A DNA stretch of 64,000 nt, from positions 24,094 to 88,093 of the forward strand of contig JBAYUP010000001.1 in NCBI GenBank assembly GCA_041675045.1, given 5' to 3'. The notes under the pieces were generated by a model that saw only the letters and a list, made by a program, of their open reading frames with translations, made no database searches and had not been told where the DNA came from. Made by a program: the position numbers and the translations under genes. Source of the stretch: Minisyncoccota bacterium (lineage in GTDB: Bacteria > Patescibacteriota > Minisyncoccia > Phycocordibacterales > UBA9973). This document shows positions 492-47,316 of the stretch, piece after piece. Position 1 is the first letter of the stretch, and the number at the start of each line of letters is the position of its first letter.

Positions 492-558
492 CAATTTCGC
501 TAACCAATAAAATGGAAATACCTCTTGTTATCTGGTATTATTGAAATACACATAAACC

Positions 559-1911
559 ATGAAAAGCCCTGATTTTCCACAAAAATTCAACCAGAAATCA
601 ATTCGAGAACACCTTGAAGATTTTGATCTAATGGAAATCAAGAATATTCAGACCCCAACGAATACAAAAGAAACTCCAAAGAGCGGAAAAGAGAAGATTT
701 TTGATTTTCTTAAATATAAAAGTCTAAAACTCAAAGAATACTTTGGCCAACTTAATCAAGCTGATTTCAATGAACTCCTAGATATTGATTTCGAAGAGCA
801 ACTACGTGAAAATCTTCCTATTAAAGGAGTGTTTTCTCCAGAAGAAGAATTAGAAATAATAAAAATCTTACCGAGAGAGCTTAAAAGAAGGTCTCTTCAA
901 ACTTTTAAAGAAAAATTAGCACGCCAGCGTGAAGCGTTGGGTACTTTACGTGTTTTTATTGAGCGAAGCATAGAATTTAATCATGATGTTCCAAGGGAAA
1001 AACTTATGGGATTGATTGAAAAGTTTAGTTCATACTACGGTTTTGATGATAACCAAAGAAAAATTTCAGAAAAACTTATCGATGGATACTACGAAAAACG
1101 CAAAGAGGTCTTGGCAATCCGCAAGCAGTTTCCTGATGACTATGAACTAATACGCAAACTCTCTGGAGTAAATCTTGGAAAAGAGGAGAAGTTAAACATC
1201 TCTGTTGGTCCAATGTCGATAGACATCGATACAGGGGAATTCAATTCTGGACAATTATATAAAAGAACAAATAGTCCAATCGCGCTTCGGTATGGTGGAT
1301 TTGCTTCTGAATCAGTAAATGGTATTTACTTTACCGTTCTTAATCGAAATGCATTTAATAGAGAGCCGAAATGGTATGGTGGTTCCAATGGTGAAAAAAT
1401 AGTGAAACATGAACAAGAGCATGAAAAAAATAAACTTTTTCAAGATATATTTAGAATAAAATTACATCGTCCAACTTTGTGGCTTAATGTTTATAAATCA
1501 GAAGAAGATTTAGAAAATAAAGAAATAATTCTGAAGGAGTTTCTGTCCGACAGTAGAGTAGTGGCACTTGAAAGAGCGAAAGATGAAATTACTGCTTCGT
1601 TGGTTGATATGGGATTACCAAAGCTTCAACAAAATCTATCGTGGCTATTTCTTGATAAAAGAAATGACTCCTATGATTACCTGGCTTACTTGCGAAACAA
1701 AGAAGAATTTAAAGATAATGCATTGTACCAAGAAACTGTCGAGAAAATGCTTGTACAGGAATATAGAGAAATAATTGAAAAAGCTGTAAATGCCTACGCA
1801 GAATTAGTAAATCAAGGTAAATATTCAATCCAAGAAGCAACAGCCCTCCTGACAGATAAACCACTAGAAACCTGGCCAAAAACAATCAAGAGATTCTTAG
1901 AATACAAATAA
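559..1911 (+). CDS. Hypothetical protein (450 aa), soluble, Lys/Glu-rich, no recognisable domain
   Basis: Long ORF from the six-frame track, ATG at 559; no family recognised by eye. Confidence 0.6.
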   Translation: MKSPDFPQKFNQKSIREHLEDFDLMEIKNIQTPTNTKETPKSGKEKIFDFLKYKSLKLKEYFGQLNQADFNELLDIDFEEQLRENLPIKGVFSPEEELEIIKILPRELKRRSLQTFKEKLARQREALGTLRVFIERSIEFNHDVPREKLMGLIEKFSSYYGFDDNQRKISEKLIDGYYEKRKEVLAIRKQFPDDYELIRKLSGVNLGKEEKLNISVGPMSIDIDTGEFNSGQLYKRTNSPIALRYGGFASESVNGIYFTVLNRNAFNREPKWYGGSNGEKIVKHEQEHEKNKLFQDIFRIKLHRPTLWLNVYKSEEDLENKEIILKEFLSDSRVVALERAKDEITASLVDMGLPKLQQNLSWLFLDKRNDSYDYLAYLRNKEEFKDNALYQETVEKMLVQEYREIIEKAVNAYAELVNQGKYSIQEATALLTDKPLETWPKTIKRFLEYK

Positions 1912-1980
1912 AAGTCTAGAAACTTGATTTTAAAAGCTTTTTTCTATAGAATCATCTATAACCATCAAACAGTTATTTAT

Positions 1981-2208
1981 ATGAGAACGTTAACCCCCAT
2001 CGAAAGAAGTTTGTTTGAGCGTGCAAAAGAGCTCAAACAAGACTTAACAGAAGACGCCTTTGTCACAGCAAGAGATGCAGCCCTAATGAGAGCCAATCCA
2101 ACGACCCAACATTTTGGGACATTAAATTCTCTTTTACTGAACTCAACATCTCCATCTGAGATGAGAAGCTTAATGGAGCAACAAGATGTTCATGACAACA
2201 TGGGGTAA
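1981..2208 (+). CDS. Small hypothetical protein (75 aa, start moved to internal Met MRTLTPIERSL...)
   Basis: Short ORF between the 450-aa gene and tRNA-Gly; weak support. Confidence 0.25.
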   Translation: MRTLTPIERSLFERAKELKQDLTEDAFVTARDAALMRANPTTQHFGTLNSLLLNSTSPSEMRSLMEQQDVHDNMG

Positions 2209-2243
2209 TTGAATTACGATGAGGATTCTTCCTCATCACCCTT

Positions 2244-2314
2244 GCGGGATTAGTTAAATGGTATAACTCTAGTTTTCCAAACTAGTGTCAGGAGTTCGAT
2301 TCTCCTATCCCGCA
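2244..2314 (+). tRNA. tRNA-Gly (anticodon TCC), 71 nt, CCA not encoded
   Basis: Manual cloverleaf: acceptor GCGGGAT/ATCCCGC, anticodon stem CTAGT/ACTAG with loop TTTCCAA, T-arm AGGAG-TTCGATT-CTCCT. The six-frame ORFs 2285..2479(+) and 2288..2515(-) overlap it and are spurious. Confidence 0.85.
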
Positions 2315-2327
2315 CAAAATGAAAAAG

Positions 2328-2350
2328 GCGACATTCGTGTCGTTTTTTTC
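2328..2350 (+). terminator. Terminator after tRNA-Gly(TCC): GCGACA-UUCG-TGTCG stem with UUCG tetraloop, then TTTTTTT
   Basis: Seen directly in the sequence. Confidence 0.7.
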
Positions 2351-2394
2351 ATTTCTATTCGCGGGATAACGAGTGAATTGCTTCACTCGTGTAG

Positions 2395-2507
2395 GAGAAT
2401 CGAAAAGCTTTTCGTTAATTGTGAGGGATATTATCCCGAACAAGTCGAAAAGGTGTACTGGTCCTGTAAGGACCGATAAGCGTACTCGCGGTCTCCTATC
2501 CCGCACT
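2395..2507. repeat. tRNA-derived repeat unit 1: starts with GGAGAATCGAAAAGC (reverse complement of the T-arm 3' half) and ends with TCTCCTATCCCGCAC (exact copy of the tRNA-Gly 3' end)
   Basis: The 15-bp direct repeat TCTCCTATCCCGCAC is at 2301-2315 and 2493-2507. GGAGAATCGAAAAGC is at 2395-2409 and 2561-2575. Internal hairpins GGGATA-T-TATCCC and GGTCC-TGTAA-GGACC. Confidence 0.6.
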
Positions 2508-2560
2508 ACAAGCAAATGAACCTAATACGAGAGTATTGGGTGATTTTGCTTGTCGCGGAG

Positions 2561-2693
2561 GAGGAGAATCGAAAAGCGCAACAGGGACCCAAACTGAAAG
2601 CTTGGGATGTGAGCTTGGGTCGCAAACACTTTGTATTTTATGAGTAAAACGAAATAAAATACTTACTGATTCATGACCGATTCTCCTATCCCC
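2561..2693. repeat. tRNA-derived repeat unit 2: GGAGAATCG ... CGATTCTCC 9-bp terminal inverted repeat around ~115 bp, ending in TATCCCC (acceptor 3' fragment)
   Basis: Second copy of the GGAGAATCGAAAAGC and TTCTCCTATCCC motifs; internal hairpin GACCCAA...TTGGGTC. Confidence 0.55.
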
Positions 2694-3183
2694 TTTCTTT
2701 TAATTGTCTCACATCTTCCAAATCAACTTGGCGAGCAAGTTTACTTTTATAAGATATTAATGAATCAATATCCTCCACGACCACTTTTTTACCATATACA
2801 TCAATCTGTACAGTGTTATTAAATTGAGCTGAGCACAATACCCATTTTCTTGTGAGTTGATTAAAGATTTTTACGTCTGCTTCAGCAATATCAATTTCTT
2901 GCCCCTCATAATTTAAAGTTAATAACTCAAGATCCCAATTTTCATCTTTATATCTCTTTGGGCCGAAAATAATATATTCTCTTGTCTCTTCAGCAATACA
3001 GGGAATATCTTTTGCCATAACAACAATATCTATGTCTGCTAATTCACGATTAACTCCATAAATTCGCGCGGCAAAACCACCCGAAATTTTGTAATTTATT
3101 TTGTTTTTTTCAAGAATATTAATAATCCACAAAAATGCCTTTTCGGTATTTCTCATAAGAAAAAAGATTACTTCTCTACTCAA
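2686..3183 (-). CDS. Nucleotidyltransferase-fold protein (Pol-beta superfamily, small Lnu/ANT-like; 165 aa)
   Basis: hG[GS]x9-13 DxD signature (ISGGFAARIYGVNRELADIDIVV) and a size typical of minimal nucleotidyltransferases. Substrate unknown. Confidence 0.5.
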   Translation of the reverse strand: MSREVIFFLMRNTEKAFLWIINILEKNKINYKISGGFAARIYGVNRELADIDIVVMAKDIPCIAEETREYIIFGPKRYKDENWDLELLTLNYEGQEIDIAEADVKIFNQLTRKWVLCSAQFNNTVQIDVYGKKVVVEDIDSLISYKSKLARQVDLEDVRQLKERG

Positions 3184-3613
3184 ACCTCACAGGAACACTA
3201 ACTGATTTATCAAATTTTGCTTCTCCTGACGGATTATCCTTTTTAAAGATTAAAGTTCCCTTTTTAACACCTGTCGGAATGGTAAATACTAGCTCCCCTT
3301 CAAATGACACAAAATCAGTTGTCATCCACTCCCCTTGCGCAGTTATGTATTTCTCTACAATACGATTCCCCTTCTCATCTACTAACTCTACAGGCGCACT
3401 TGCCTCAAAAAACCAATTTCCACGAGCCTTACCAGAAAGTTTTAATGGACTTGTTATTATTTGATCTGCTTGGGGATTATTTATAACAATATCCTTATTT
3501 TCTTGGGTATTTTGTATTTGCGTCGGTGCTTCACCTTGTTTAACATACAAAAAGACTGCAAAAACAACCAAACAAAGGATAAAAATAGAAATACAAAATC
3601 GTTTAATTGTCAT
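3176..3613 (-). CDS. Secreted or membrane-anchored Gmad2-type immunoglobulin-like domain protein
   Basis: N-terminal hydrophobic segment followed by a G.ARGNWFFEASAP...VELVDEKG pattern typical of Gmad2 (GerM-associated) Ig-like domains. Start moved to the internal ATG at 3613. Confidence 0.5.
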   Translation of the reverse strand: MTIKRFCISIFILCLVVFAVFLYVKQGEAPTQIQNTQENKDIVINNPQADQIITSPLKLSGKARGNWFFEASAPVELVDEKGNRIVEKYITAQGEWMTTDFVSFEGELVFTIPTGVKKGTLIFKKDNPSGEAKFDKSVSVPVRFE

Positions 3614-3633
3614 ATGTATAAATAATAACACTT

Positions 3634-4035
3634 TTAGAGAATAATGTGTGGAATCACAACAACCTTTGATTTTCTCTGAAATAGATCAATGTAAACCAAA
3701 AGGACATCAAATTGCCATTCCCTGTTCCCTGTTCGATTATGAATGAGGTATGTTTCAACTATTCTCTTTAGTCGTCCAAGTTTTGAGGGGTGCATATTTT
3801 CTTCCGGTCTAAATGTTTCCCGTGTAACAGTATTATTCACCCCAAAAGTATGGGAAACAGATTTTACTTCGATAAAATAAAGTTTTTTATTCTTTTCAGC
3901 AATAATATCTATTTCTCCCCATTTTCTTGTATAATTTCGTTCAAGAATATTAAAACCTTTCTTTGTAAGAAAAATAGAAGCAACATCCTCACCCAACTTC
4001 CCTATTTTTTGAGAGTTTGAGGTAAAAACTTTCAT
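3634..4035 (-). CDS. yraN: YraN family protein (UPF0102, predicted endonuclease)
   Basis: GEDVAS.FL...GF.ILERN.R...GEIDIIA......FIEVK motif matches UPF0102/YraN; a TAGGAT Shine-Dalgarno lies 6 nt before the ATG. Confidence 0.8.
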   Translation of the reverse strand: MKVFTSNSQKIGKLGEDVASIFLTKKGFNILERNYTRKWGEIDIIAEKNKKLYFIEVKSVSHTFGVNNTVTRETFRPEENMHPSKLGRLKRIVETYLIHNRTGNREWQFDVLLVYIDLFQRKSKVVVIPHIIL

Positions 4036-4070
4036 AATATCCTAATTGTTACACATGTAACCTGTAAAAT

Positions 4071-4108
4071 AAATAGCCAATCGTTTCACGTGAAACGATT
4101 GGCTATTT
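4071..4108. promoter_or_regulatory. Perfect 17-bp-arm palindrome AAATAGCCAATCGTTTC-ACGT-GAAACGATTGGCTATTT upstream of yraN
   Basis: Seen directly in the sequence; it sits in a promoter region rather than after a gene end, so an operator or cruciform is more likely than a terminator. Confidence 0.3.
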
Positions 4109-4395
4109 ATCAGACATAAAATATGTTTTATTATGATGTCTTTCTAAAAATATGCTTATTCTATAAGGGTAGATTACAAATACAGGACTCTTGGTTTATT
4201 CTATATGCGGACAAAAATATCTGTCTTTTATTAACAATAGACACATCTTTATCCACAGATTGTTGATTTTAAAGGGTTTTGCCTGTGCATAAAAGACTGA
4301 TAAAGGGCAGAGATTAAACATTAAGAATCGGCCACAATTACGAGGGGGATAAGAGAATCGGTCAACGATTCTCCGCTTACGCGCATCTCTACCAA

Positions 4396-4430
4396 TAAAA
4401 AAGAGCAATCAGACGGATTGCTCTTTTTTA
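4396..4430 (-). terminator. Terminator for the minus-strand tRNA-Gly(GCC): AAAAAAGAGCAATC-AGACG-GATTGCTCTTTTTT
   Basis: Perfect 14-bp stem flanked by A and T runs; usable in both directions. Confidence 0.7.
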
Positions 4431-4434
4431 TTGG

Positions 4435-4505
4435 TGCGGGATAGGAGAATCGAACTCCTGTCTCATCCTTGGCAAGGACGTGTTCTACCACTAAACCAAT
4501 CCCGC
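4435..4505 (-). tRNA. tRNA-Gly (anticodon GCC), 71 nt, CCA not encoded
   Basis: Minus-strand cloverleaf: acceptor GCGGGAT, anticodon stem CGTCC/GGATG (one G-U) with loop TTGCCAA, T-arm AGGAG-TTCGATT-CTCCT identical to tRNA-Gly(TCC). Confidence 0.85.
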
Positions 4506-4622
4506 ATTTGTTTATAAAATTTTAATAAACATAAGAATTATTATAAGCATTTTTTTGTGAAATTGCAATGAGGCAAAACATCAAGCAAAATAGGGAATAT
4601 TTTTTACAAATGAGTAAAATAG

Positions 4623-4653: not shown

Positions 4654-4725
4654 GCACCCATGGTGAAATGGATATCACGACGGTCTTCGGAACCGTTATT
4701 GGGGGTTCGAATCCCTCTGGGTGCA
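4654..4725 (+). tRNA. tRNA-Arg (anticodon TCG), 72 nt, CCA not encoded
   Basis: Acceptor GCACCCA/TGGGTGC, D-stem GTGA/TCAC, anticodon stem ACGGT/ACCGT with loop CTTCGGA, T-arm GGGGG-TTCGAAT-CCCTC. The six-frame ORF start at 4660 lies inside this tRNA. Confidence 0.8.
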
Positions 4726-4737
4726 CAAAAAAACCAA

Positions 4738-6297
4738 ATGAGTAAGAATATCTCTATAGATAACTCAAAAATTCCTCATTATGTTACACATGTAACAGAA
4801 ATCCTCGAAAAGGCAGGTTTCGAGGTCTTTCTTGTTGGGGGATGTGTGCGAGATCTAATTATGAATAGAGAGCCTAAAGATTGGGATCTTACCACAAACG
4901 CTCTCCCAGAACAGATAATTACACTTTTTGAAAAAACCGTCTATGAAAACACCTTTGGAACAGTAGGTGTTTGTGTTCCCATTGTTTCAGGTGAAACAAT
5001 GGGTGATGTTACACCCGCCGACGCTAAAGTTTTGGCGGGCAGGTATGAAACAAAAGAAAGTGTTACACGGGAAACATATCACATTATTGAGGTTACTCCA
5101 TATAGAATTGAAGCAAAATATAGTGATTTCAGGCACCCAGATGAAGTAAAATTCAGCAAAAACATAGAAGATGACCTAAAAAGACGTGACTTTACTATAA
5201 ATGCTTTGGCTTTTAGCAATAAAGGACAAATTCTTGACCTTTATAAAGGACAAGAGGATATAAAAGACAAAGTTATTAGAGCGGTGGGGAATCCAGTAGA
5301 ACGATTTCAAGAAGATGCACTTCGTATGCTTCGGGCAGTTCGATTTGCTTCGCAACTTAATTTTGCGATTGAATATGACACCTTACAAGCAATTGTGGAT
5401 AACTCTGATTTATTGAAAAATATTTCAGCAGAAAGAATCCGTGATGAATTTGTAAAAATTATTGAATCAGAAAATGCTTCTATGGGAGTTGGAATGCTCT
5501 CAAAATTGGGATTACTAAAATATATTATTCCTGAACTCGAAGAGGGAATTGGGTGCGAACAAGGCGGTGCACATATTTATGATGTATTCGAACACTGTTT
5601 GCACGCACTTGATCATGCAACTCGTAAAAATTTCGCGACCGAGATACGTCTTTCTGCGCTCTTCCATGACATTGGTAAGCCACGTACACGTAGAAAAGGG
5701 GAGAAGAAAGCATATACATTCTATGGCCACGAGGTTATTGGCGCACGTATGGTTCAGAAAATAATGGATCGTTTGAAATTCCCACGCAAAACAACCGACC
5801 TCGTCGTCTCTATGGTACGAAATCATATGTTTTTCTCTGATACGGAACAAATTACTCTTTCAGCTGTTCGTCGTATTATTCAAAAAGTAGGGAAGGAGCA
5901 TATATGGGAATTGATGGATATTCGAGAATGCGACCGCGTAGGAATGAAAAAAGCCGAAGCACCATATCGTCTCCGAAAATACCATGCCATGATTGATGAA
6001 GTTCTGCGTGACCCAATCTCTGTCGGGCAACTCGCCCTCGACGGGGAAGTGATGATTAAAGAATTGGGAATTAAACCAAGTCCACGCATGGGATGGATAC
6101 TTCATGCGCTTCTCGAAGAAGTTCTCGATGACCCAACAAAAAATGTACGAACATATCTCGATATTCGTACACAAGAACTCAATGATTTATCAGATGATGC
6201 ACTGAAACTACTTGGAGAAAAAGCAAAAATTGCAAAAGAAGAATTAGAGGAAGAAGAAATTGCCAAAGTTCATAAAAAACATGGTGTACAGAAATAA
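4738..6297 (+). CDS. cca: CCA-adding tRNA nucleotidyltransferase (poly(A) polymerase-type head domain plus C-terminal HD domain)
   Basis: GGCVRDLIMNREPKDWDLTT head-domain motif and HD motif HALDHA...LFHDIGK. Start moved to the ATG at 4738 because 4660 lies inside tRNA-Arg. A PcnB-like poly(A) polymerase cannot be fully excluded. Confidence 0.8.
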   Translation: MSKNISIDNSKIPHYVTHVTEILEKAGFEVFLVGGCVRDLIMNREPKDWDLTTNALPEQIITLFEKTVYENTFGTVGVCVPIVSGETMGDVTPADAKVLAGRYETKESVTRETYHIIEVTPYRIEAKYSDFRHPDEVKFSKNIEDDLKRRDFTINALAFSNKGQILDLYKGQEDIKDKVIRAVGNPVERFQEDALRMLRAVRFASQLNFAIEYDTLQAIVDNSDLLKNISAERIRDEFVKIIESENASMGVGMLSKLGLLKYIIPELEEGIGCEQGGAHIYDVFEHCLHALDHATRKNFATEIRLSALFHDIGKPRTRRKGEKKAYTFYGHEVIGARMVQKIMDRLKFPRKTTDLVVSMVRNHMFFSDTEQITLSAVRRIIQKVGKEHIWELMDIRECDRVGMKKAEAPYRLRKYHAMIDEVLRDPISVGQLALDGEVMIKELGIKPSPRMGWILHALLEEVLDDPTKNVRTYLDIRTQELNDLSDDALKLLGEKAKIAKEELEEEEIAKVHKKHGVQK

Positions 6298-9900: not shown

Positions 9901-10404
9901 ATGATTATAAAACATAAAGAACAACGCGTGGGGGTTTTTATCGATACATCGAATCTCTACCACAGTGCGAAAAATTTATACAAAAGAAAAGTAAACTTCG
10001 GACAAGTTTTAAAAGATGCTGTCGCTGGACGCAAACTCGTCCGTGCAATCGCCTACGTGATTACATCAGAGGGTGGGGAAGAGAAGAATTTTTTTGATGC
10101 CCTTACGAAACTCGGCATCGAAACAAAAACAAAAGAATTACAAATATTCTCTGGTGGAGCAAAGAAGGGGGACTGGGATGTCGGCATTGCGGTTGATGCT
10201 ATGAAGATGGCTCCAAAACTCGATGCAATTATTCTTGTCGCAGGAGATGGTGATTTTATCCCACTCGTAGAATACCTACAAAACACATCAGGCATCCAAG
10301 TCGAAGTTGTTTCATTCGGTAAATCATCATCAATGAAATTAAAAGAAGCCGCCGATGATTTCCTCGACCTCTCAGCAAGTCCACAGAAATATTTAATGAG
10401 ATAA
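9901..10404 (+). CDS. NYN domain (LabA-like, PIN-related) protein
   Basis: VGVFIDTSNLYHS...LVAGDGDFIPLVEYLQ...GIQVEVVSF is the typical NYN/LabA arrangement. Confidence 0.75.
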   Translation: MIIKHKEQRVGVFIDTSNLYHSAKNLYKRKVNFGQVLKDAVAGRKLVRAIAYVITSEGGEEKNFFDALTKLGIETKTKELQIFSGGAKKGDWDVGIAVDAMKMAPKLDAIILVAGDGDFIPLVEYLQNTSGIQVEVVSFGKSSSMKLKEAADDFLDLSASPQKYLMR

Positions 10405-10414
10405 ACATCCAACT

Positions 10415-10446
10415 AAACCGCACCCATTTACAAATGGGTGCGGTTT
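10415..10446 (+). terminator. Hairpin AAACCGCACCCATTT...AAATGGGTGCGGTTT after the NYN gene
   Basis: Perfect 15-bp stem with only a weak T-run. Confidence 0.5.
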
Positions 10447-10548
10447 GCTATGCTCTAGATATTACACGTAATCGGGTTATTCTCTGGACGGTTAGCGTTG
10501 AAACAAAAGTTTCAAAACTAGGGTCTGGAGATTAGCTCACATGGAAGT

Positions 10549-12675
10549 ATGCACAAGAAAGAATACGAAGTAGAAATCGGTGGTAAGAAAATTACCGCGC
10601 TTTTCAGTGATTTAGCAGACCAAGCAAATGGGTCGGTTATTTTGAAGTCAGAGGGAACCGTAGTTATGGCAACCGCAGTAATCTCAAAAGACGGGAAATC
10701 AAATCCAGGATTTTTTAATCTCACAGTAGAATATTTAGAAAAATTTTACGCTGCGGGTAAAATTCTCGGTAGTCAATTTAATCGTCGCGAGGGCAGGCCA
10801 TCTGACCAAGCAATTCTCGCTGCCCGAATGATTGACCGCACGATTCGTCCACTCTTTGACCATCACATCAAAAACGCCGTGCAGGTAATCGTCACCGTCA
10901 TCGCAATCGGCGATGCTGACCCAAAAACACTCGGCATCAATGCTACCTCACTCGCACTCCACGTGTCAGACATTCCATGGAACGGACCAATTGGTGCGGT
11001 TCATGTTAGTACAACGAAAGAAGACTCGGTTGTCACGATCAATCGCTATGTGCCAAGTGATGACGAACCAGTCTACACACTCGATCTTCTTGTGTGCGGA
11101 AAAGAACACACAATCAATATGATTGAGGCGATGGCCTTTGAGTACGGGAATGAAGTAATGGGGGAATGTTTCGAGAAGGCAGTCGTTGAAATTACAAAGT
11201 GGGAAACATTTGAAAAAATGATCGCAGGAGAAATCGGAAAAGCAAAACTTTCATTCCCTCGCCCAACTGCACCAGAAGAAATCAAAAGTCTCTTCGCAGA
11301 AAAAATCGCACCACTTCTCGATGCAAAATTAATCTCACCTGAAAGTAAGAAAGCAACTAGGGATGCAGAAACACTGTGGAATGCAATCCTTGAAGAAAAA
11401 TATGGTGACGATAAAGAAGCACTCTATGTCGGACAAGACCACATGCACCACTACCTCGACCATTCATTCCACAAAGCTGCTCTTGAAAAAGAAATGCGCG
11501 CTGATGGACGAGCCCTCGATGAAGTTCGGATGTTATACGCACAAGCTGGAGATATCTCTGATGTGTTACACGGTTCTGGAATCTTCTATCGAGGAGAAAC
11601 TCACGTGCTCTCTGTGCTCGCACTTGCAGGACCTGATGCGATGCACACCATTGATGGAATTGAATTCGCAGCAAAGAAACGATTCATGCATCACTACAAT
11701 TTCCCTCCATACTCAAGTGGTGAAACAGGTCGTGTCGGTGGAATCAATCGTCGCGAAATGGGGCATGGCTTTCTCGTTGAGAAAGCACTCACACCAGTTA
11801 TTCCAGAGAAATCATTGTTCCCATACACAATCCGTGTTGTGTCTGAATCAGTTGCATCGAACGGCTCGACATCTCAGGCATCTATCTGTGCCTCAACTAT
11901 CGCACTCATGGATGGTGGTGTGCCGATTACAAATCCTGTAGCTGGTATCTCTATCGGTGCAATGATTGATAGTGAAAATAAAAATAACTACAAACTCCTC
12001 ACTGACATTCAAGGACCAGAAGATCATTTTGGTGATATGGATTTCAAAATCGCTGGAACAAAAAACGGAATCACTGCTATTCAACTCGATGTAAAAGTTG
12101 ATGGTATCCCAACACAGATACTAAAGGAGGCTCTCGTCCGCGCTGAAAAAGCACGAATGAAAATCCTTGAAACAATCACAAAAGAAATAGCTGTTCCACG
12201 AGCTGACATATCGCCACGTGCTCCAAAGATTCTTGTAACTAAAATTAAGAAGGATCAAATCGGTATGGTCATCGGCCCTGGTGGTAAAAATATCAATGCT
12301 ATTCGCGAAGCAACGGGAACAGAAATTACTATCGAAGAAGATGGAACAATTTTTGTTACTGGCACAAACGGTGGTGCTGAAAAAGCTGTCTCAATTATCG
12401 AAGAAATGACTCACGAATATTCAATCGGAGACACTGCGACAGGTGAGGTTGTGAAACTGATGGACTTCGGCGCATTCGTACGGATAGGCAACAATACAGA
12501 GGGACTCGTGCATGTGTCAGAGATTGCCCCATTCCGTGTTGAAAAAGTTTCTGATATCCTTAAAGAAGGAGATCGTGTTCCCGTCAAAATAATTAAAGTT
12601 GACGAACGTGGACGACTTAACCTTTCTATCAAAGAAGCTGATCAAAACTTCTTTAAACCAAAAACTGATAAATAA
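10549..12675 (+). CDS. pnp: Polynucleotide phosphorylase (PNPase)
   Basis: 708 aa with two RNase PH-like halves, and KH and S1 domains at the C-terminus (S1: GEVVKLMDFGAFVRIGNNTEGLVHVSEIA). Conserved rpsO-pnp synteny. Confidence 0.95.
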   Translation: MHKKEYEVEIGGKKITALFSDLADQANGSVILKSEGTVVMATAVISKDGKSNPGFFNLTVEYLEKFYAAGKILGSQFNRREGRPSDQAILAARMIDRTIRPLFDHHIKNAVQVIVTVIAIGDADPKTLGINATSLALHVSDIPWNGPIGAVHVSTTKEDSVVTINRYVPSDDEPVYTLDLLVCGKEHTINMIEAMAFEYGNEVMGECFEKAVVEITKWETFEKMIAGEIGKAKLSFPRPTAPEEIKSLFAEKIAPLLDAKLISPESKKATRDAETLWNAILEEKYGDDKEALYVGQDHMHHYLDHSFHKAALEKEMRADGRALDEVRMLYAQAGDISDVLHGSGIFYRGETHVLSVLALAGPDAMHTIDGIEFAAKKRFMHHYNFPPYSSGETGRVGGINRREMGHGFLVEKALTPVIPEKSLFPYTIRVVSESVASNGSTSQASICASTIALMDGGVPITNPVAGISIGAMIDSENKNNYKLLTDIQGPEDHFGDMDFKIAGTKNGITAIQLDVKVDGIPTQILKEALVRAEKARMKILETITKEIAVPRADISPRAPKILVTKIKKDQIGMVIGPGGKNINAIREATGTEITIEEDGTIFVTGTNGGAEKAVSIIEEMTHEYSIGDTATGEVVKLMDFGAFVRIGNNTEGLVHVSEIAPFRVEKVSDILKEGDRVPVKIIKVDERGRLNLSIKEADQNFFKPKTDK

Positions 12676-32827: not shown

Positions 32828-33721
32828 ATGCGTTTAAAAATTAAACGAGAATATCTACCGAGTGACGAATTCATAGCGAGAATTATTATTCTCGCGGTTG
32901 TTATTGGAATTCTCGTTGGACTCTATTATCTTGGTGGTTTTGTTATTAAGAAAATAAAAACGAGACAGTCAAAAGTAAACATCGCTGAACTTGTGACAAA
33001 AGACTCTAATAGAAATGATATCCCTGATTGGGAAGAATCATTGTGGGGACTCGATCCCACAAAAAATGGGGCGAAAAATAAAGAAATCATCACAGAAAAA
33101 AAGAAAGCCCTCGCGGAAGGTATTGATGGTGCAGGGAAGCCACTTACAGAAAGCGATAAAATGGCACGAGAGTTCTTTGCCCTTGTAACGTCTCTTCAAG
33201 AAAGTGGTAATTTAAATGAGGAATCCATTGGCCTTATTGCAGATGCTATTAGTGAAAAAGCTGTGGCAATACCAATCCCTAATATCTACACAAGTGATTC
33301 AATCAAAACAACGGCTACAAATTTAACATCAATAAAGACCTTCTATACTGCATTTAAAAAACTGGGGACAGCATACAATGACAGGGATATTGGAGAAGAG
33401 CTTATTTTTATCGCTCAAGGTGCCGATAACAATGACACTCAAGCTCTCTATGCAGCAAAAACAATCGCACAATCATACAAATCATTCGCCGAAGAACTAG
33501 TAAGAATCCCAGCAGTACCAACATCTCTTGCAAATCTTGTTGTTGAATTAGCGAATAATTACTACAAAACAGGTGCTTCAATAGAAGAAATGACGAAACT
33601 TGCCGACGATGAACTCGCTGGAATGAGAGGCCTCGTAAACTACAACCAATATTCAATAGCACTTGTTAAAAACCTAGAAACAATGAGAACTTTTTTCATC
33701 AGAAATGGTATACTAAAATAA
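32828..33721 (+). CDS. Membrane-anchored hypothetical protein (297 aa)
   Basis: N-terminal transmembrane helix IARIIILAVVIGILVGLYYLGGFVI. Confidence 0.5.
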   Translation: MRLKIKREYLPSDEFIARIIILAVVIGILVGLYYLGGFVIKKIKTRQSKVNIAELVTKDSNRNDIPDWEESLWGLDPTKNGAKNKEIITEKKKALAEGIDGAGKPLTESDKMAREFFALVTSLQESGNLNEESIGLIADAISEKAVAIPIPNIYTSDSIKTTATNLTSIKTFYTAFKKLGTAYNDRDIGEELIFIAQGADNNDTQALYAAKTIAQSYKSFAEELVRIPAVPTSLANLVVELANNYYKTGASIEEMTKLADDELAGMRGLVNYNQYSIALVKNLETMRTFFIRNGILK

Positions 33722-33728
33722 CATTAGC

Positions 33729-36500
33729 ATGAGAAAACACTTTGCCCACAACATCAAAGCATCGTTCACACTATGCACTCTAGTTGTTTTATTTCTCAAT
33801 ATCTCAATCGTGGAAGGAGCAACAGAAGCAGTGGATCCTCGAAAGGGAATTTATGTTGATGATTCATCTTTGTACAGAGCAAATTCAAAAAATATTGCTG
33901 ACTCAGGATTATTTACGACAGTCCCTGGGTGTAACAATATTGGAAATAAAGTACAGAAATCTATTGGTGGTATCTTAAACAACGACCCGACGAGTTTCGT
34001 GACTCTTGCTGATTCTATTGGAGACCTTACAGGAGATAATGTTACCACACAAGATATGGCAGCGAATTCTGCACTTAAGGATATTCTTAATTCTACAAAA
34101 GAAGACCAATTCCGTAGTGAATGTATGGACGGCATTGGATACCAACTCGCAAAAAAACAACTTGCGAGTATTACAAACAAAATTATCAGCGGGGCAGTAG
34201 TTGGAAATAATGGTGATTCAATGTTTAAAGATGAATCATCACTCCTAGAGAGTATTCAAAATAAAGAAATTTCACGCGTAGCAAAAACATTCGGCACATC
34301 TACAGACACGAATGCCTATCCATTTGGAAAAGAATATTCACGTGGACTCATCACTTCTACACGAGCCCAAAATAATTTTGAGGAATCAATGAAATCAGAT
34401 CTTTCTCAATATGGTGGAATACAGGGAGCTTCTAAAAATTTTAATTGGGATAAGTGGATGAATATTACTCAGAATGTTCAGAATAATTATCTCGGACACA
34501 CTGTTGCTGTCAGTCAGCATCTTACAGATTCAATAAATCAAAAAACTCAAGTCCAACGTGATGAATTAAATCAAAACAGTGGTTTTCTCTCACAAAAAAA
34601 ATGTGTTGAGTATTATCCTTCGACATCAAGTGGCACTATTGCCCCTGGAGGTGGGACATACAATACAGGACAAGGTGCATGTAAAAGATGGCAAGTGCTC
34701 ACACCAGGAAGTATTATTGCACAACAACTATTTGCTGTAGTGACTTCTCCTATTCGCCAACTCGAACTTGCTGATGGTGTCAACGAAACATTAAGTGGAG
34801 TATTCAATAAACTTGTTAATAAACTCGGGCTTCAGGGGTTATTCGGTGTTTCCTCATTTGCAACACGACAGGGTAGCTACACCGTAGGGGGAGATAGTAT
34901 TAGTTCATCATTCGGCTCATCAACTGGATTTGGTTTTGGATCAAGTTTCGGTAGCAGTACAGGTGACGGTGATGCAATTATCTCAGTCAACAGAGGTAAT
35001 GGATGGTACGAAGGAGATGAACCGTTTGACCTCACAAAAGACCTCGGCAACACCTACCTTCGTGAAAAACCAAAATACCTTGGCACATGGAACGCCTCAA
35101 CAAACAAGACAACCCCAACAGCAGAATCAGGAGAAGAAGCTACATCTCTTGCGCCAGGGATTGGAATAAAAAACACATATTATGTTGTCTCAACTGGAGG
35201 TAATACTGAAATAAACATCCCCGAAACTTGTTTTCCTGTTTTGTACGCAGACGGATCAACATCACAATGCTGGAAGCGAGGGAATATCCTTATTTTTGAT
35301 GGGGAAAGATGGCTCAAAGCTCATTATTTTAACGGGAGAAACGATGGTAGTGGATTCAAGGTAATCCCAGGCGAAAACGGAGAAGCAGAAAGTACTCTTG
35401 TTGATTTACTCAAAAGCCCACGACTTAAAATAATCGACAAAAAAGGTGTCATTCAGACACAGTACGATTATCTAAAGGCGATTAAAGCATCAATGCGAGA
35501 ATTACCTAATATCATGCCAGCTCTTGGTGAACTTGATTATTGCATTCCAGGACCAAACCCAAGCTGGTACGAGAGTGCGGAACTGGCGGGGGAAGCACTT
35601 AGTGGATACATTAGCAAGATACAAATTGACCCGAACACTCTTCAGATTATTGGCCCACCACCTGCACAATACAAAACACAATATTTTGGCTCGAAGCCAT
35701 GGAAACAATTAAATCCAAAGAAATTTGAAACACTCTTTCAAAACTATTTCGGTGTTGACCCTAATCAATTTGCCTCAACATTCATGAACTCAATTATGAG
35801 CACCACAGCTAGTGGTAATACTGGATTCAGTGGTAACATTGTGGGCGACATTGTAGGGGGACTTTTAGGAACTAATAATAGTAGCGGGCCAAGTCCATCA
35901 GAAATTGCATTTCAACAGGCATACGCAGAAGCACAAGAAATCCTTGAAGCAGAAAAAGAAGCAGCAATTACAATTATTGGAAATCAATTACAATCATACA
36001 AAGGAGCATCAGACGCAATCTATGGACAGGGTGGTGTTATGACAACAGAGCTTCTCATCAACCCCGACACAGAAGAAGCAACAGAAAATCCAAACTATCT
36101 CCCAATGGCGCAAGCAGGCATGGCACTTACGAGAGATATTCGTCTCTATGATGTAAATATTGATGAGGCAACACAAGACTACAAAGACCTCATTGATGAG
36201 AGTGTTGCAAATATTTACAAACTTAATCTTATTAAAACGAAAGTTGATAAGATTGTAAAAGCAGCTCAAGCACGTCGCTCAAAAGAACTTCCTGCTAACA
36301 CAATCCCAGACGATTGTTTGATGTATGAACAAATTAGTTATATTAATGGAGGGATAACAACAGGCGACCTAAACACAATAAATGGCGACTTAAGTGGTGG
36401 TGGAACAGGAGGAGGAGTCACAGGTGTGGGAGGTGGGGTAATTTATACTAATGGAACAGGAGGGGTAACAGGAGCTGGGGCTGGAGTAGGAGGACAATAA
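33729..36500 (+). CDS. Large secreted hypothetical protein (923 aa) with a Gly-rich C-terminal tail
   Basis: Signal peptide. C-terminus GGGTGGGVTGVGGGVIYTNGTGGVTGAGAGVGGQ. Confidence 0.6.
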   Translation: MRKHFAHNIKASFTLCTLVVLFLNISIVEGATEAVDPRKGIYVDDSSLYRANSKNIADSGLFTTVPGCNNIGNKVQKSIGGILNNDPTSFVTLADSIGDLTGDNVTTQDMAANSALKDILNSTKEDQFRSECMDGIGYQLAKKQLASITNKIISGAVVGNNGDSMFKDESSLLESIQNKEISRVAKTFGTSTDTNAYPFGKEYSRGLITSTRAQNNFEESMKSDLSQYGGIQGASKNFNWDKWMNITQNVQNNYLGHTVAVSQHLTDSINQKTQVQRDELNQNSGFLSQKKCVEYYPSTSSGTIAPGGGTYNTGQGACKRWQVLTPGSIIAQQLFAVVTSPIRQLELADGVNETLSGVFNKLVNKLGLQGLFGVSSFATRQGSYTVGGDSISSSFGSSTGFGFGSSFGSSTGDGDAIISVNRGNGWYEGDEPFDLTKDLGNTYLREKPKYLGTWNASTNKTTPTAESGEEATSLAPGIGIKNTYYVVSTGGNTEINIPETCFPVLYADGSTSQCWKRGNILIFDGERWLKAHYFNGRNDGSGFKVIPGENGEAESTLVDLLKSPRLKIIDKKGVIQTQYDYLKAIKASMRELPNIMPALGELDYCIPGPNPSWYESAELAGEALSGYISKIQIDPNTLQIIGPPPAQYKTQYFGSKPWKQLNPKKFETLFQNYFGVDPNQFASTFMNSIMSTTASGNTGFSGNIVGDIVGGLLGTNNSSGPSPSEIAFQQAYAEAQEILEAEKEAAITIIGNQLQSYKGASDAIYGQGGVMTTELLINPDTEEATENPNYLPMAQAGMALTRDIRLYDVNIDEATQDYKDLIDESVANIYKLNLIKTKVDKIVKAAQARRSKELPANTIPDDCLMYEQISYINGGITTGDLNTINGDLSGGGTGGGVTGVGGGVIYTNGTGGVTGAGAGVGGQ

Positions 36501-36501
36501 A

Positions 36502-38001
36502 ATGGAAACAAATTCACACAAAAGAAGTAGGGCATTTATTATAACGTTCATCGCGGTTATTATTCTTTTAATTGTTGGGTACTTCCTTCTCTTCAAAGAT
36601 GGTGGTGTGTTTAGCACAAAGGGAACTTCAAGTGAACAAAAGAGCTTCTTTCCCCTCCTTGGTTCATCAAAGAAAAAAGCAGAGAAAGTTGAAACTCCAA
36701 CTGCACCAGATGGAACACCAATCAACACAGAGACAACAGTCGACGGCGCAGTGCCACTTTTTAATCCAGTCCCTGGCCCAAACGGAAAAGAACCACGTGT
36801 AACTCTCTCTGCAACACCAAAAATCCTTGATGCAAAAGGCGGAAATGTAAAACTAACATGGAAAGGAGAGAATGTGTCCTCATGTATCCCGAGTTGGACA
36901 GGTAAGCGAATTGCTCAAACAAGCGGAACATCAAACGAACTCACTGTTAAGAAAACGAGACTATTTTCAATTGCATGTACAAACGGAATCACAACAACAG
37001 GAGCCACTGTTCAGGTATCTGTAGTGGGATCTTCAACGCTTGGTATCGCACTTTTTGCGAATCCAGATGTTCTCGATAGCGCCGGAAAAGTAAAACTCTC
37101 ATGGACAAGTAATAATTCAGTCAAAGCATGTACTCCGAGTTGGACTAATCGAAAAAATGACTCTGAGGGAGATGCGACAGTCACGGTGAATGAATCAAAA
37201 ACATTTTCAATCAACTGTACTGACGGCACAACATTTGAAATTGCCGAAGTTGATGTCATTGTCACAGAATTTTACTCAAACATTAGAGAATGTAATGACG
37301 GACTTGATAACGATGGAGACAAAACAACAGATATGGCCGACTCAAGCTGTCATACTGATTTTGATGCTACAAACGAGGCAACGTACAACCCTCGAATTAG
37401 TCCTGAATCAAGATCTCCAGTATCTCAAGCAGACGACCATTGTAAAGCACTCGATGAAAACCCTCTGAAGTTTACTGACGCAGAAAAAAGAGAGCTCGAC
37501 AAACTCCTCCGTCAATTCTACAGAGTGGCACCTAAACTCAAGACACAAGATGATGTCCTTGCTGAATATGGGGCTCGGGAAGGATATATTGATTTATACA
37601 AAGAAGCGCGAGACCTCACTCAGCAATGTTTTGGACAACGTTATCCTGTAGAGAATAATGTAAACAGGGTTGCTGTTGGTGCGACACCAAACTACACTGG
37701 CCCACAAGAAACAAAAACAAATCCATACTACCAGCCAGCAGGAATCATAAATTCACCAACATATATTACTGAGGCCTACCAAGATTCCAAGTTTAAAAAA
37801 TGGGAAAACAAGGTTATCCAACTTCACTTAGATGCTATTGCAAAACTAGATGTGAAAATCATAAATGCGACGACAAATTCCAAAAAGGCACTCTTTACTG
37901 CACTTCGTAATTATGAACAAAACAAACTTAATAACTTCACAGACCTTGCACGACGAAGAAATGAGTTCATCCGCATTCAAGAAATTCTCCAAATTTGGTA
38001 G
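36502..38001 (+). CDS. Membrane-anchored protein with tandem Ig-like Cys-pair repeats (499 aa)
   Basis: N-terminal transmembrane helix, two ~100-aa repeats (..KLTWKGENVSSCIPSW.. / ..KLSWTSNNSVKACTPSW..), and a Cys-rich C-terminal domain. Confidence 0.6.
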   Translation: METNSHKRSRAFIITFIAVIILLIVGYFLLFKDGGVFSTKGTSSEQKSFFPLLGSSKKKAEKVETPTAPDGTPINTETTVDGAVPLFNPVPGPNGKEPRVTLSATPKILDAKGGNVKLTWKGENVSSCIPSWTGKRIAQTSGTSNELTVKKTRLFSIACTNGITTTGATVQVSVVGSSTLGIALFANPDVLDSAGKVKLSWTSNNSVKACTPSWTNRKNDSEGDATVTVNESKTFSINCTDGTTFEIAEVDVIVTEFYSNIRECNDGLDNDGDKTTDMADSSCHTDFDATNEATYNPRISPESRSPVSQADDHCKALDENPLKFTDAEKRELDKLLRQFYRVAPKLKTQDDVLAEYGAREGYIDLYKEARDLTQQCFGQRYPVENNVNRVAVGATPNYTGPQETKTNPYYQPAGIINSPTYITEAYQDSKFKKWENKVIQLHLDAIAKLDVKIINATTNSKKALFTALRNYEQNKLNNFTDLARRRNEFIRIQEILQIW

Positions 38002-38047
38002 TTTTCCTCTGCAAGAAGGATGAAAAGGGGATTTCTTATTTAAAAAT

Positions 38048-38056
38048 TGGTATAAT
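38048..38056 (+). promoter_or_regulatory. Extended -10 TGGTATAAT immediately upstream of leader element B
   Basis: It ends 10 nt before the 5' arm of the inverted repeat, so a transcript would begin about at the arm. Confidence 0.45.
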
Positions 38057-38066
38057 AATCGAGTGA

Positions 38067-38216
38067 ATCCCGTTAGAGATTTTTTATGTCATATATGTAA
38101 CGGGAGGTGCATTAGCATACTTATTAAAATTATTGTATTTATTTAAAATGTATACGCCCCATGCAAAAATTGGATAATTTTAGAAAAAAAAACGATGGGG
38201 CTATCTCTAACGGGAT
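38067..38216 (+). promoter_or_regulatory. Inverted-repeat leader element, copy B: 5' arm ATCCCGTTAGAGAT (38067-38080), 3' arm ATCTCTAACGGGAT (38203-38216); the ATG at 38215 overlaps the 3' arm
   Basis: Perfect 14-bp inverted repeat around ~122 bp of AT-rich sequence. An internal partial arm GTAACGGGAGG lies at 38097-38107. Confidence 0.7.
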
Positions 38217-41142: not shown

Positions 41143-41153
41143 AAAAATAAATT

Positions 41154-41939
41154 ATGGAACAACAAGAAGAAATAAAAAAAGCAATACAAGAAAGATTTGA
41201 AAACCTGCAACCAGAAATACAGGATGCAATTATGTCATCAAATTACGAAAAAGAACTTTATGACATAAGTCAAAAATATAAACTCAACATTGAACAAATG
41301 GGTCAACTTGAGCTAAATACAACTCTCGTTATGCTTGGGAACACTCATCCAGATGAATATGTAGATGAACTTGTTACTGATTTAAAAATAAAAAAAGAAG
41401 ATGCTCTAGCTATTTCAAATGACGTAAATGAACGCATTATGAAAAATATTCGTGAAATTTTAAAAAAAAACTTTGAAAAAGAAGATGAGGAGGAGAGTGC
41501 TTCTAAGGAAGTACCCGTACCACCTCAAAACCCCATTCTTCCGACAGAAGCAACCGTAAAAACGGAAACTGCATTAAAAACAAACCTCACCACCCCACTC
41601 CCAAAAACCCAATCAGGGATTCTTGCCAATGCTGGTATTGAAATGATGGAAGATATGAAAACAAATACAAAAGATGGCGAAGACATTTCAAAAAAAGAGG
41701 GTGGGGTTCTCTCAGAATCAGGAATTAATGTAATTGATGATGCTCCTCGTCCTTCATCACATGTATTCGCAAGTAATATGACCCGCAAAAATACCCTTGA
41801 TGGTATAGAAAACCCAACAAGAACAAACCCAAATATTGCGATGGAAAAACTTCAAAATCCAACAACAAGTACCCAATCGACAACAAACTACTCAATCCCT
41901 AGAATGAGTGGTGACCAGTATCGCGAGCCAATTGAATAA
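41154..41939 (+). CDS. Hypothetical soluble protein (261 aa), acidic and Thr/Pro-rich in the C-terminal half
   Basis: ORF within the T4SS-like cluster. Confidence 0.5.
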   Translation: MEQQEEIKKAIQERFENLQPEIQDAIMSSNYEKELYDISQKYKLNIEQMGQLELNTTLVMLGNTHPDEYVDELVTDLKIKKEDALAISNDVNERIMKNIREILKKNFEKEDEEESASKEVPVPPQNPILPTEATVKTETALKTNLTTPLPKTQSGILANAGIEMMEDMKTNTKDGEDISKKEGGVLSESGINVIDDAPRPSSHVFASNMTRKNTLDGIENPTRTNPNIAMEKLQNPTTSTQSTTNYSIPRMSGDQYREPIE

Positions 41940-41959
41940 ACGCGTGATACAATAGATAC

Positions 41960-42370: not shown

Positions 42371-42451
42371 AAATGTTATACTTTATACTGTATCATTCAT
42401 CCATAATTAGTAACCTGCCTACCGGCAGGTAGGTTCGTAATTATTTTTCCT

Positions 42452-43090: not shown

Positions 43091-43098
43091 GTATATGA

Positions 43099-43222
43099 AT
43101 CCCGTTAGAAGTCGCGAACGCGTTATAATATAATGGATAGAAGTAATATGAAAATAAACCCAACAATTAAAAAAATAATTTCAGTAAGCTGCGAAAAGAT
43201 CGCGCTCTACTTCTAACGGGAT
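43099..43222 (+). promoter_or_regulatory. Inverted-repeat leader element, copy C: 5' arm ATCCCGTTAGAAGT (43099-43112), 3' arm ACTTCTAACGGGAT (43209-43222); the ATG at 43221 overlaps the 3' arm
   Basis: Perfect 14-bp inverted repeat around ~96 bp, sitting exactly between the two VirB4 ORFs. TATAAT at 43124-43129 inside the element. Confidence 0.7.
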
Positions 43223-45062: not shown

Positions 45063-45090
45063 TAATACGCTCATTGTTTCCACCTCGTAA

Positions 45091-47315: not shown

Positions 47316-47316
47316 T

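Follow-up and report, generated by a model that had tools for sequence, protein, structure and literature searches.

An apparently undescribed family of structured elements trailing tRNA genes in one Paceibacteria clade

The DNA analysed here, hereafter the window, is a stretch of 64,000 nucleotides from a Minisyncoccota bacterium (GenBank assembly GCA_041675045.1, contig JBAYUP010000001.1, positions 24,094 to 88,093), and near its start two tRNA-Gly genes bracket a 2.1-kb segment in which small structured elements trail the tRNA genes and repeat their 3' ends. tRNA-Gly(TCC) occupies 2244-2314/5 on the plus strand (ARAGORN; Rfam tRNA model, 70.5 bits), its last 15 nt (2301-2315) forming direct repeat DR1, and tRNA-Gly(GCC) occupies 4435-4505 on the minus strand (ARAGORN; Rfam, 69.1 bits). 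Both genes end in the same 27 nt, CAGGAGTTCGATTCTCCTATCCCGCAC, and their 3' ends face inwards, as the original prediction, made from the letters of the sequence, had described. The repeated T-arm and tRNA 3'-end motifs that it listed are also real: GGAGAATCGAAAAGC occurs exactly twice in the 64 kb (at 2394 and 2563) against an expectation of 0.25, the 15-mer TCTCCTATCCCGCAC is found at 2301 in tRNA-Gly(TCC), at 2492 and, in the other tRNA-Gly, at 4434, and CGATTCTCCTATCCC is seen again at 2678. A search of the window finds six exact copies of GGAGAATCG, all six within this locus. The G+C content is 0.44-0.47 across 2300-2700 and about 0.32 in the surroundings.

The first unit, which I call element A, is an intact 146-nt member of the family described below (2361-2506, plus strand; covariance model 115.8 bits, E-value 8e-35; predicted fold -61.9 kcal/mol, z = -6.6). 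It stands 43 nt behind tRNA-Gly(TCC) and matches the tRNA 3' end at 15 of 15 positions, and by this position, identity and model score it belongs to the family. The unit had been recognised at the outset but was given too late a start: it begins with the 5' strand of helix P1, GCGGGATA at 2361-2368, which pairs with TATCCCGC of the 3' repeat. P2, a 9-bp hairpin (2369-2390), separates this segment from a second one, the 5' strand of P3 (2393-2402, AGGAGAATCG), which is complementary to the T-loop and to the 3' strand of the T-stem and pairs with CGAT...TCTCCT. The interior is a three-way junction made of P4 (2407-2414 with 2446-2453), which encloses a variable hairpin as its tip (2415-2445), the junction TGTACTG (2454-2460) and P5 (2461-2473, GTCCTGTAAGGAC). 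There follow CGAT (2474-2477), an optional hairpin (2478-2491) and direct repeat DR2 (2492-2506), which reproduces the 3' end of the tRNA exactly. The optional hairpin, with a consensus of approximately RYGUACUCRYGG, lies between the inner and outer parts of the P3 3' strand; besides A it occurs in L014, L112, L103, L176 and L182 (L-labels, L001 and so on, denote the related loci and contigs compared with the window).

Each unit behind tRNA-Gly(TCC) is preceded by a terminator-like hairpin on the plus strand. The spacer between the tRNA and A holds T1 (2317-2354), an inverted repeat of -18.4 kcal/mol that resembles an intrinsic terminator with its A-run, GC stem and T-run, and the spacer between A and the second unit holds T2 (2520-2551), found in a terminator scan and alignable with the spacer ahead of the corresponding element in L004. 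The second unit, element B (2555-2693, plus strand; fold z = -3.1), is divergent and reaches a model score of only 11 bits. Its P3 is a 9-bp helix of GGAGAATCG (2563-2571) with CGATTCTCC (2678-2686), which bears out the claim that unit 2 is bounded by a 9-bp inverted repeat; its 3' repeat has decayed to CGATTCTCCTATCCCC and its interior is unlike that of A, but the junction motifs are kept. Judging by its low score and decayed repeat, B is a degenerate member of the family. An ortholog of B, 88% identical, stands behind tRNA-Gly(TCC) in L004. A and B are different subtypes, and because L004 has the B type only, with its terminator, behind the same tRNA, the A-B array is no simple duplication.

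Two units had been listed at first, and both stand, but a third copy had been missed. Remnant C lies on the minus strand behind tRNA-Gly(GCC) (4345-4374; found through direct and inverted repeats) and consists of no more than the P3 hairpin, GGAGAATCG TTGAC CGATTCTCT, plus TATCCCC; L002 has a full element at this position, and C aligns with its 3' end. Between the tRNA and C, directly after the former, is a terminator with a perfect 20-bp stem (4391-4435, minus strand; inverted repeat and fold). The loop of this terminator (window 4408-4418, CCGTCTG) is found reverse-complemented in strain L206 (about 4452-4458, CAGACGG), a hairpin-loop flip.

The wider family was sought from 68 related loci fetched through the neighbouring gene for the CCA-adding enzyme (cca), in several of which BLAST showed fragments of A. 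A covariance model built on seven sequences (A and six relatives), whose alignment has obvious compensatory changes, gave 51 matches in the cca-fetched loci, often 2-6 per locus. A scan of metagenomes for a pattern of the P2 loop plus the junction yielded at least 120 further stretches, and the model confirmed at least 56 and at least 57 elements among the metagenome stretches listed. In all, 154 model matches from three locus sets, drawn from related genomes and metagenomes, were analysed, and the architecture was found in more than 100 independent assemblies or samples. In Rfam 15 only the tRNA and transfer-messenger RNA (tmRNA) models match at the gathering score, and with E-values up to 10 over 2200-4560 nothing credible falls on 2361-2700. 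Full-text literature searches returned no description of such elements, and a survey of tRNA introns in Patescibacteria (PMC13011429) does not mention them. This is a large family of tRNA-trailing structured elements in one Paceibacteria clade, and it has apparently not been described.

The elements are 110-150 nt long, and their interior (P2, P4, P5) is common to all tRNA types. The fold consists of an acceptor-like helix stacked on a T-stem-like helix and capped by a conserved three-way junction, which in place of a T-loop has GAAAG, P4 with its variable tip, GUACUG, and P5 with a YGUAR loop. P2, which lies outside the structure of the model, is a hairpin of about 9 bp whose loop is most often CUGC, and it splits the 5' arm exactly where the D and anticodon arms of a tRNA leave the acceptor/T-stem stack. 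In this predicted fold the single strand is a mimic of the top half of its own tRNA. In an alignment of 56 sequences 89.9% of cells are paired, against 63.6% when shuffled and 41-53% when the partners are slid; 23 of the 27 pairs have changed on both sides, and there are 369 double-change cells against 117 in shuffles. Of the three readings first offered, decayed attachment sites, miniature tRNA-derived mobile elements and small structured RNAs, what survives is a small structured, tRNA-derived element, by the score of A and by this strong covariation; the decayed attachment sites do not. I also compared the junction by eye with a piece of tmRNA, the Alu domain of the signal recognition particle RNA (GGUG...CCUGUAA), hammerhead and other small ribozymes, the K-turn, the T-box and Y RNA, and rejected them all, as none agrees with the order of the junction or is backed by a model. 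A P4-P5 core also occurs in a different outer frame, without the T-loop complement and sometimes without an upstream tRNA (L021 2856-2924, L038 3711-3780, L083 1582-1684), which suggests that this core is a separable module.

The placement of the elements is strict. A tRNA or tmRNA gene in the same orientation lies within 300 nt upstream of 135 of the 154 elements, and 11 more stand at locus edges. Among the upstream genes all 20 isotypes are represented, with 37 anticodons, as well as tmRNA; in L131 an element (10050-10170, minus strand) trails tmRNA (10211-10594, minus strand) behind a terminator, and its 5' strand complements the 3' end of the tmRNA. Between the 3' end of an element and that of its own upstream tRNA the median exact match is 15 nt, with 12 nt or more in 83 of 135 cases, whereas a match of this length was found for none of the 154 elements when they were paired with random tRNAs. 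The repeat comprises the last 15-21 nt of the tRNA, that is, the 3' half of the T-loop, the 3' strands of the T-stem and acceptor stem, the discriminator and the next C. Its left edge falls at discrete positions of the T-loop, with peaks at 15 and at 18-19 nt, and its right end is normally the discriminator plus one C.

The 5' part of the element is a perfect Watson-Crick complement of this 3' repeat, in two pieces around P2. Its conserved AATCGAA motif is the complement of the T-loop and covaries with it, such that a tRNA-Arg with CGAGT is followed by an element with ACTCG. Where the tRNA acceptor stem has a G:U pair, the 5' strand of the element follows the complement of the 3' strand in nine cases and not in one, with three ties; the G3:U70 pair of tRNA-Ala, for example, becomes A:U. 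As the 5' strand complements the 3' copy and not the tRNA 5' strand, the 3' copy is the master to which the 5' arms are fitted. Changes in the T-stem of the tRNA are mirrored on both arms of the element (L004 versus L008).

These results leave little room for the view that the units are chance similarities, assembly artefacts or decaying tandem tRNA pseudogenes, an explanation I hold to be barely credible. Assemblies can break at tandem repeats (L004 contains a run of N), and P1 and the outer part of P3 do resemble the tRNA's own stems, but the same architecture recurs across the independent assemblies and samples, the source sequence is reproduced in a second sample (contig k141_139993 of ENA ERZ27247358 is 100% identical to the window), and the control for the 3'-end match came out empty. 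Tandem tRNA pseudogenes in particular were rejected: the 5' strand complements the 3' strand and is not derived from a tRNA, as the nine-to-one count at G:U pairs indicates, and the P2, P4 and P5 core has no counterpart in tRNAs.

Occupancy is partial. In loci chosen through cca, and not through the element, 36 of 150 tRNAs (24%) are followed by a unit, compared with none of 79 in more distant lineages of the Candidate Phyla Radiation (CPR), and orthologous sites differ in occupancy between relatives. At the tRNA-Arg/cca junction and at tRNA-Gly(GCC) the boundary between presence and absence lies exactly between the repeat copies; in L054 and L026 an element sits between tRNA-Arg and cca, and cca starts about 10 nt after the element repeat. 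Identical tandem copies occur in L004 (with an assembly gap), L013 and L128, and in mixed arrays (the window, L015, L028, L114) the most intact copy is the one nearest to the tRNA. Many copies are decayed or truncated, lacking the P1 5' strand (L054, L003, L126) or retaining only P5 and the repeat. There is no consistent gene downstream of the elements.

The serial units behind one tRNA that the original prediction had seen are thus independent units, of distinct subtypes and gained or lost exactly between repeats, but its explanation for them, the classic footprint of repeated integration and excision at a tRNA gene, here as scars of islands or prophages moved by an integrase at tRNA-Gly, finds no support. 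tRNA and tmRNA genes are classical targets of integrases and the T-loop is a known sublocation of their crossover, and the direct repeats of the tRNA 3' end do begin in the T-loop. Yet in more than 130 cases the repeats never enclose an integrase or cargo, the interval is of constant size and carries a conserved, covarying fold, and it contains a complement of the repeat for which attachment scars have no need. When I searched 9 kb around 433 tRNAs for distant copies of the 3' end, as expected of cargo-bearing versions, the only repeat partner was the paralogous second tRNA-Gly. Viral or phage carriers were not found either (pattern scans of viral contigs, a weak negative, and BLAST against phage genomes). 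I therefore regard attachment scars as very improbable, and they and the artefacts are essentially ruled out.

How do copies come to resemble each other? In L034 two tRNA-Gly loci share 165 identical nt, although their spacers differ by 17% in the 5' part and each locus keeps repeats of its own, and in L026 and L027 modules are shared in a mosaic pattern. It appears evident from such alignments that gene conversion makes copies alike. An analysis of the nearest neighbours of cores, as a sign of transposition between tRNA types, was set aside, being confounded by gene conversion and mosaicism.

A rival explanation of the units would be target-primed, RNA-mediated insertion, in which an antisense nick in the T-loop DNA frees a 3' end that anneals to the tRNA-like end of an element RNA and primes reverse transcription; a cut of the second strand at a variable downstream point would then duplicate the target from the T-loop onward. 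Several features fit. The left edge of the repeat is fixed (15 or 18-19 nt) and the right edge sometimes lies 14 to more than 60 nt past the tRNA (L002, L009), both repeats are always of the local tRNA type, 5'-truncated copies have a common 3' end (L054, L003, L126, L015), and the conserved T-loop would be a universal target in tRNA and tmRNA genes. However, neither a reverse transcriptase nor an endonuclease turned up near any of the copies, the repeat ends at the tRNA end in most pairs, several of the long extensions are plain tandem arrays (L004, L013), and the internal complement would stay unmatched to a new tRNA. That no group II introns are reported for the phylum from complete Patescibacteria genomes (PMC13011429) counts against it as well. 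On balance I think this route improbable.

Whether the fold matters as RNA or as DNA can be approached from the spacers and the stems. In 50 of 75 units a spacer of 18-49 nt separates the unit from the tRNA and nearly always contains an intrinsic terminator of the textbook bidirectional kind; 18 of the 75 abut the tRNA directly, as at the L013 junction, where ...GCACCA is followed at once by G. The stems are almost purely Watson-Crick, and GU and AC mismatches number 61 and 35, compared with 173 and 8 in tRNA stems of the same genomes. Given the terminator spacers, the weak GU/AC asymmetry and the lack of a consistent downstream gene, co-transcription with the tRNA does not seem to be required. 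This argues that many copies may be free of selection at the RNA level, or that the fold may matter in DNA.

The main rival to the reading I lean towards, possible if on the unlikely side, is that the units are host-functional tRNA-like RNAs. Transcribed with the tRNA or by read-through, such an RNA would be an anticodon-less mimic of the top half, handled by RNase P (at the 5' end of P1), 3' trimming and CCA addition. It might mark the boundary of a tRNA and its neighbour, for processing or as punctuation, or might act as a decoy or sponge that draws off factors binding the acceptor and T-arm, or as a pairing partner of the tRNA 3' end, and the function would require the sequence identity. 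In its favour, the covariation is strong and the nucleotides of the loops and the junction are conserved; the topology is tRNA-like, the 3' strand being continuous and the 5' strand interrupted at the place of the D and anticodon arms; and the element tracks T-stem changes of its tRNA on both arms. Intact, divergent copies follow all four tRNAs in L096, the abutting units have no spacer, some units lie inside the tRNA-Arg-cca transcript, G+C is raised, GU exceeds AC, and the family is retained in very small genomes. Against this, two thirds of the units lie behind a terminator, occupancy is low and varies among close relatives, decayed and truncated copies are common, and the GU/AC asymmetry is far below that of tRNAs. 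The identity pair of tRNA-Ala is destroyed and the discriminator is often paired, so that mimicry for aminoacylation is unlikely, and no known requirement accounts for an exact identity of 15-21 nt.

The genes between the tRNA pair, all on the minus strand, bear on how the locus varies between strains. The original prediction had named a yraN-Gmad2-nucleotidyltransferase operon. A Gmad2-domain protein (3176-3613; gene call, Pfam PF10648, E-value 4e-13) and a YraN/UPF0102 protein (3634-4035; PF02021, E-value 6e-19, in conserved synteny with tRNA-Gly(GCC), tRNA-Arg, cca, xth and xer) are confirmed, but the third gene, a small nucleotidyltransferase-like open reading frame (ORF) of 156 aa (2686-3156; gene call), has no Pfam match and only a weak Lnu(A)-like one (E-value 0.004, below the cut-off), with a visible GG...DIDI motif; its stop codon lies inside the reverse complement of the 3' repeat of element B. 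It belongs to a strain-variable segment of 670 bp (2503-3172) made up of GCAC, T2, B and this gene, which is missing from approximately 98% identical strains in three other samples (L208, L211, L212). There the truncated repeat of A, TCTCCTATCCC, joins position 3173, 3 nt past the Gmad2 stop. Being absent from such close strains, the nucleotidyltransferase-like gene is not a fixed member of a yraN-Gmad2 operon.

Three configurations are known after the repeat of A: T2-B-nucleotidyltransferase in the window, the junction to the end of Gmad2 in L208, L211 and L212, and a terminator in L205. The last (L205 2800-2842) is about 85% similar to the terminator behind tRNA-Gly(GCC) in the window (4391-4435), and the contig ends there; recombination between inverted copies of the repeat would yield this arrangement. 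Whole tRNA blocks also change orientation. Many relatives carry the Gly(GCC)/Arg and Pro/Gly(TCC) blocks the other way round (L026 and L027, with 87% cca identity, are one example of such a difference), and in L012 and L046 Gly(TCC) and Gly(GCC) have swapped places. The flipped blocks and the differing boundary after A make recombination at these repeats plausible. The inversion of the 2.1-kb segment that had been suggested for the tRNA pair, by contrast, was seen in no relative or strain compared: YraN keeps its orientation in relatives with the same inward tRNA-Gly pair (L004, L006, L015, L025) and in strain L206, which is 97-98% identical. The identical arrangement, fragments included, across distant relatives had been named in advance as evidence against recent integration, and the comparison with relatives shows that the arrangement is not conserved as it stands.

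L205 differs from the window in a second respect. In the block from tRNA-Pro to tRNA-Gly(TCC) (window 492-2243, L205 759-2536) a 450-aa protein of unknown family is 77% identical and a 75-aa ORF 52% identical, although the flanks (88 nt upstream of tRNA-Pro; T1 plus A) are about 98% identical and both tRNAs 100% identical. The block looks like a hypervariable allele that may be exchanged between the two tRNA genes. I considered a recent transfer of T1 plus A, given their 98.4% identity between the window and L205 beside the 77% identical gene, and rejected it, since 97-98% is the background of the species (L206 and other strains) and it is the protein block that is hypervariable.

The interpretation I lean towards, tentatively and without assigning it an even chance, is that the unit is a dispensable cassette that perpetuates itself and has direct repeats at tRNA 3' ends as its boundaries. 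Behaviour of this kind is suggested by the partial occupancy, the gain and loss exactly between repeats, the identical tandem copies, the arrays with the most intact copy next to the tRNA, the many decayed or truncated copies, the shared stretches in L034 and in L026 and L027, and the three configurations behind A. Such a unit would be gained, lost and tandemly duplicated precisely between two copies of a tRNA 3' end, and its copies would be homogenised by gene conversion among themselves. The match to the tRNA would be kept by conversion from the adjacent tRNA, together with selection on the hairpin arms or their correction by template switching. Selection would preserve the fold of the single strand, which a presumed trans-acting factor would recognise as DNA, or as RNA where it is co-transcribed.

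A good deal weighs against such a cassette. None of the copies has a linked transposase, integrase, reverse transcriptase or HUH enzyme. The 64-kb window holds no HUH (Y1) transposase, reverse transcriptase or transposase gene, and the one recombinase gene it does hold is Xer-like and lies in conserved synteny 3.5 kb away; nor was an HUH enzyme noticed beside the elements. Two pattern scans of viral contigs, with patterns that catch 10-20% of known copies, confirmed no copy there, their hits being chance matches and the single model match, at a weak 15.4 bits, looking like chance too; distant BLAST against phage genomes gave no match. Simple copy-and-paste cannot explain an internal complement matched to each new tRNA, and the L034 pair seems better explained by gene conversion than by fresh insertion. 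Other facts sit more easily with a role as RNA: units between tRNA-Arg and the start codon of cca must be transcribed, GU is still above AC and the elements are G+C-rich as RNA genes are, and the four intact copies of L096 stand mutually divergent on one contig, behind four of its four tRNAs. Copies at the same tRNA persist over deep divergence with compensatory changes, and resident copies look as if they are under purifying selection.

Several observations concern the surroundings. The order YraN-tRNA-Gly(GCC)-tRNA-Arg-cca-xth-xer is conserved across Paceibacteria (L001-L068), and the nearest named relatives of the window are metagenome-assembled genomes of Paceibacterota and Nomurabacteria. 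tRNA-Arg(TCG) lies at 4654-4726 and cca at 4741-6297, and with a cca start only some 10-14 nt behind the tRNA, cca must be co-transcribed with it; a 545-aa ORF listed from 4660 reads through tRNA-Arg and is an artefact. Genes for PNPase and an NYN-domain protein lie at 9.9-12.7 kb, and a TraG-like ATPase (43221-45062) stands amid large ORFs without a Pfam match (33000-48600). With dnaA and dnaN at 50.7-53.4 kb (50728-53390) the window takes in the dnaA/dnaN region, usually the site of the replication origin. In other loci I came across a second structured sequence, of about 320 nt, with covarying hairpins, an end in ...GACAC and no Rfam match (L150 12592-12914 and 14318-14633; also L097, L182, L136, L197). 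In L150 its copies are inverted repeats that flank an XRE regulator and a pilin-like gene, and one copy takes the expected place of a tRNA-Tyr, before an otherwise orthologous terminator and Tyr-type element.

What stands out is a single conserved fold at tRNAs of every specificity, each copy matched over 15-21 nt to its own tRNA. To my knowledge there is no genetics for the CPR, and few of its non-coding RNAs are known. The host genomes, of about 1 Mb, have little room for junk; the 3' ends of tRNA and tmRNA genes are classic landing sites of mobile DNA, and tRNA mimicry is a recurrent theme of RNA biology. A mobile or self-perpetuating unit would point to a mechanism, so far unrecognised, for reading or copying the 3' ends of tRNAs, and it would explain why tRNA neighbourhoods are hot spots of rearrangement and strain variation. 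If it is a functional RNA, it represents a new and abundant class of tRNA-linked RNA in the CPR. In practice the units will confuse predictors of tRNAs, pseudogenes and islands, and will break assemblies.

Which known systems come closest? The attL and attR repeats of integrative elements at tRNA and tmRNA genes share with the elements the duplication of the tRNA 3' end from the T-loop, the same sites, and gain and loss exactly between the repeats. A direct repeat of the tRNA 3' end, exact over 15-21 nt, is present here, but neither integrase and cargo nor remnants of them lie between the repeats; the interval is of 100-190 bp, it has a covarying fold that includes a complement of the repeat, and all isotypes are served within single genomes. 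Integron attC sites and their cassette arrays also conserve a single-strand fold over sequence and form arrays beside a single fixed site, every junction sharing a short core, and the position of the most intact copy nearest to the tRNA would fit their newest-proximal order. Unlike them, the present arrays adjoin no IntI, have no GTTRRRY core (the junction is the 3' end of the adjacent tRNA), usually carry no ORF as cargo, and have a branched fold with P2, P4 and P5. As for recombination of a folded strand in the manner of integrons, the near-pure Watson-Crick stems and weak strand asymmetry may be taken as an indirect sign.

Repetitive extragenic palindromes (REP) and REPINs, miniature inverted-repeat transposable elements (MITEs) and the palindrome-associated transposable elements (PATEs) of IS200/IS605 are likewise short, structured, multi-copy intergenic repeats with a patchy distribution, decayed copies and concerted evolution, and IS200/IS605 elements have internal guides that pair with the flanking target. 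In contrast to these, no RAYT or TnpA partner was found for the elements, in the window or beside other copies, their ends are matched to each tRNA over 15-21 nt, and their place and orientation behind the tRNA are strict. The primer-binding site of retroviruses and long terminal repeat elements is complementary over about 18-21 nt to a specific tRNA, in the 3' stretch that runs from T-loop to acceptor end, but here the complement is split by a hairpin and paired in cis with a copy of the same sense, and there is neither a complement of CCA nor a retroelement.

On the RNA side, plant mitochondrial t-elements, mascRNA and the tRNA-like domain of tmRNA have the same acceptor-like helix on a T-stem-like helix and no anticodon arm, a fold that could suit RNase P or the CCA-adding enzyme. 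In the elements, however, a P4/P5 junction replaces the T-loop, and the discriminator and the C after it are often paired within P1, which sets them apart from that group; they are also matched in sequence to the neighbouring tRNA, usually stand behind a terminator and have no Rfam match. Set beside all of these, the family could, though I would put it no higher than a serious candidate, be a new class: a structured unit programmed by the tRNA 3' end that shadows practically any tRNA or tmRNA gene in a CPR clade, and that is kept matched to its tRNA either by a new way in which a folded single strand targets or duplicates tRNA 3' ends or as a new family of tRNA-specific mimic RNAs with a role in the cell.

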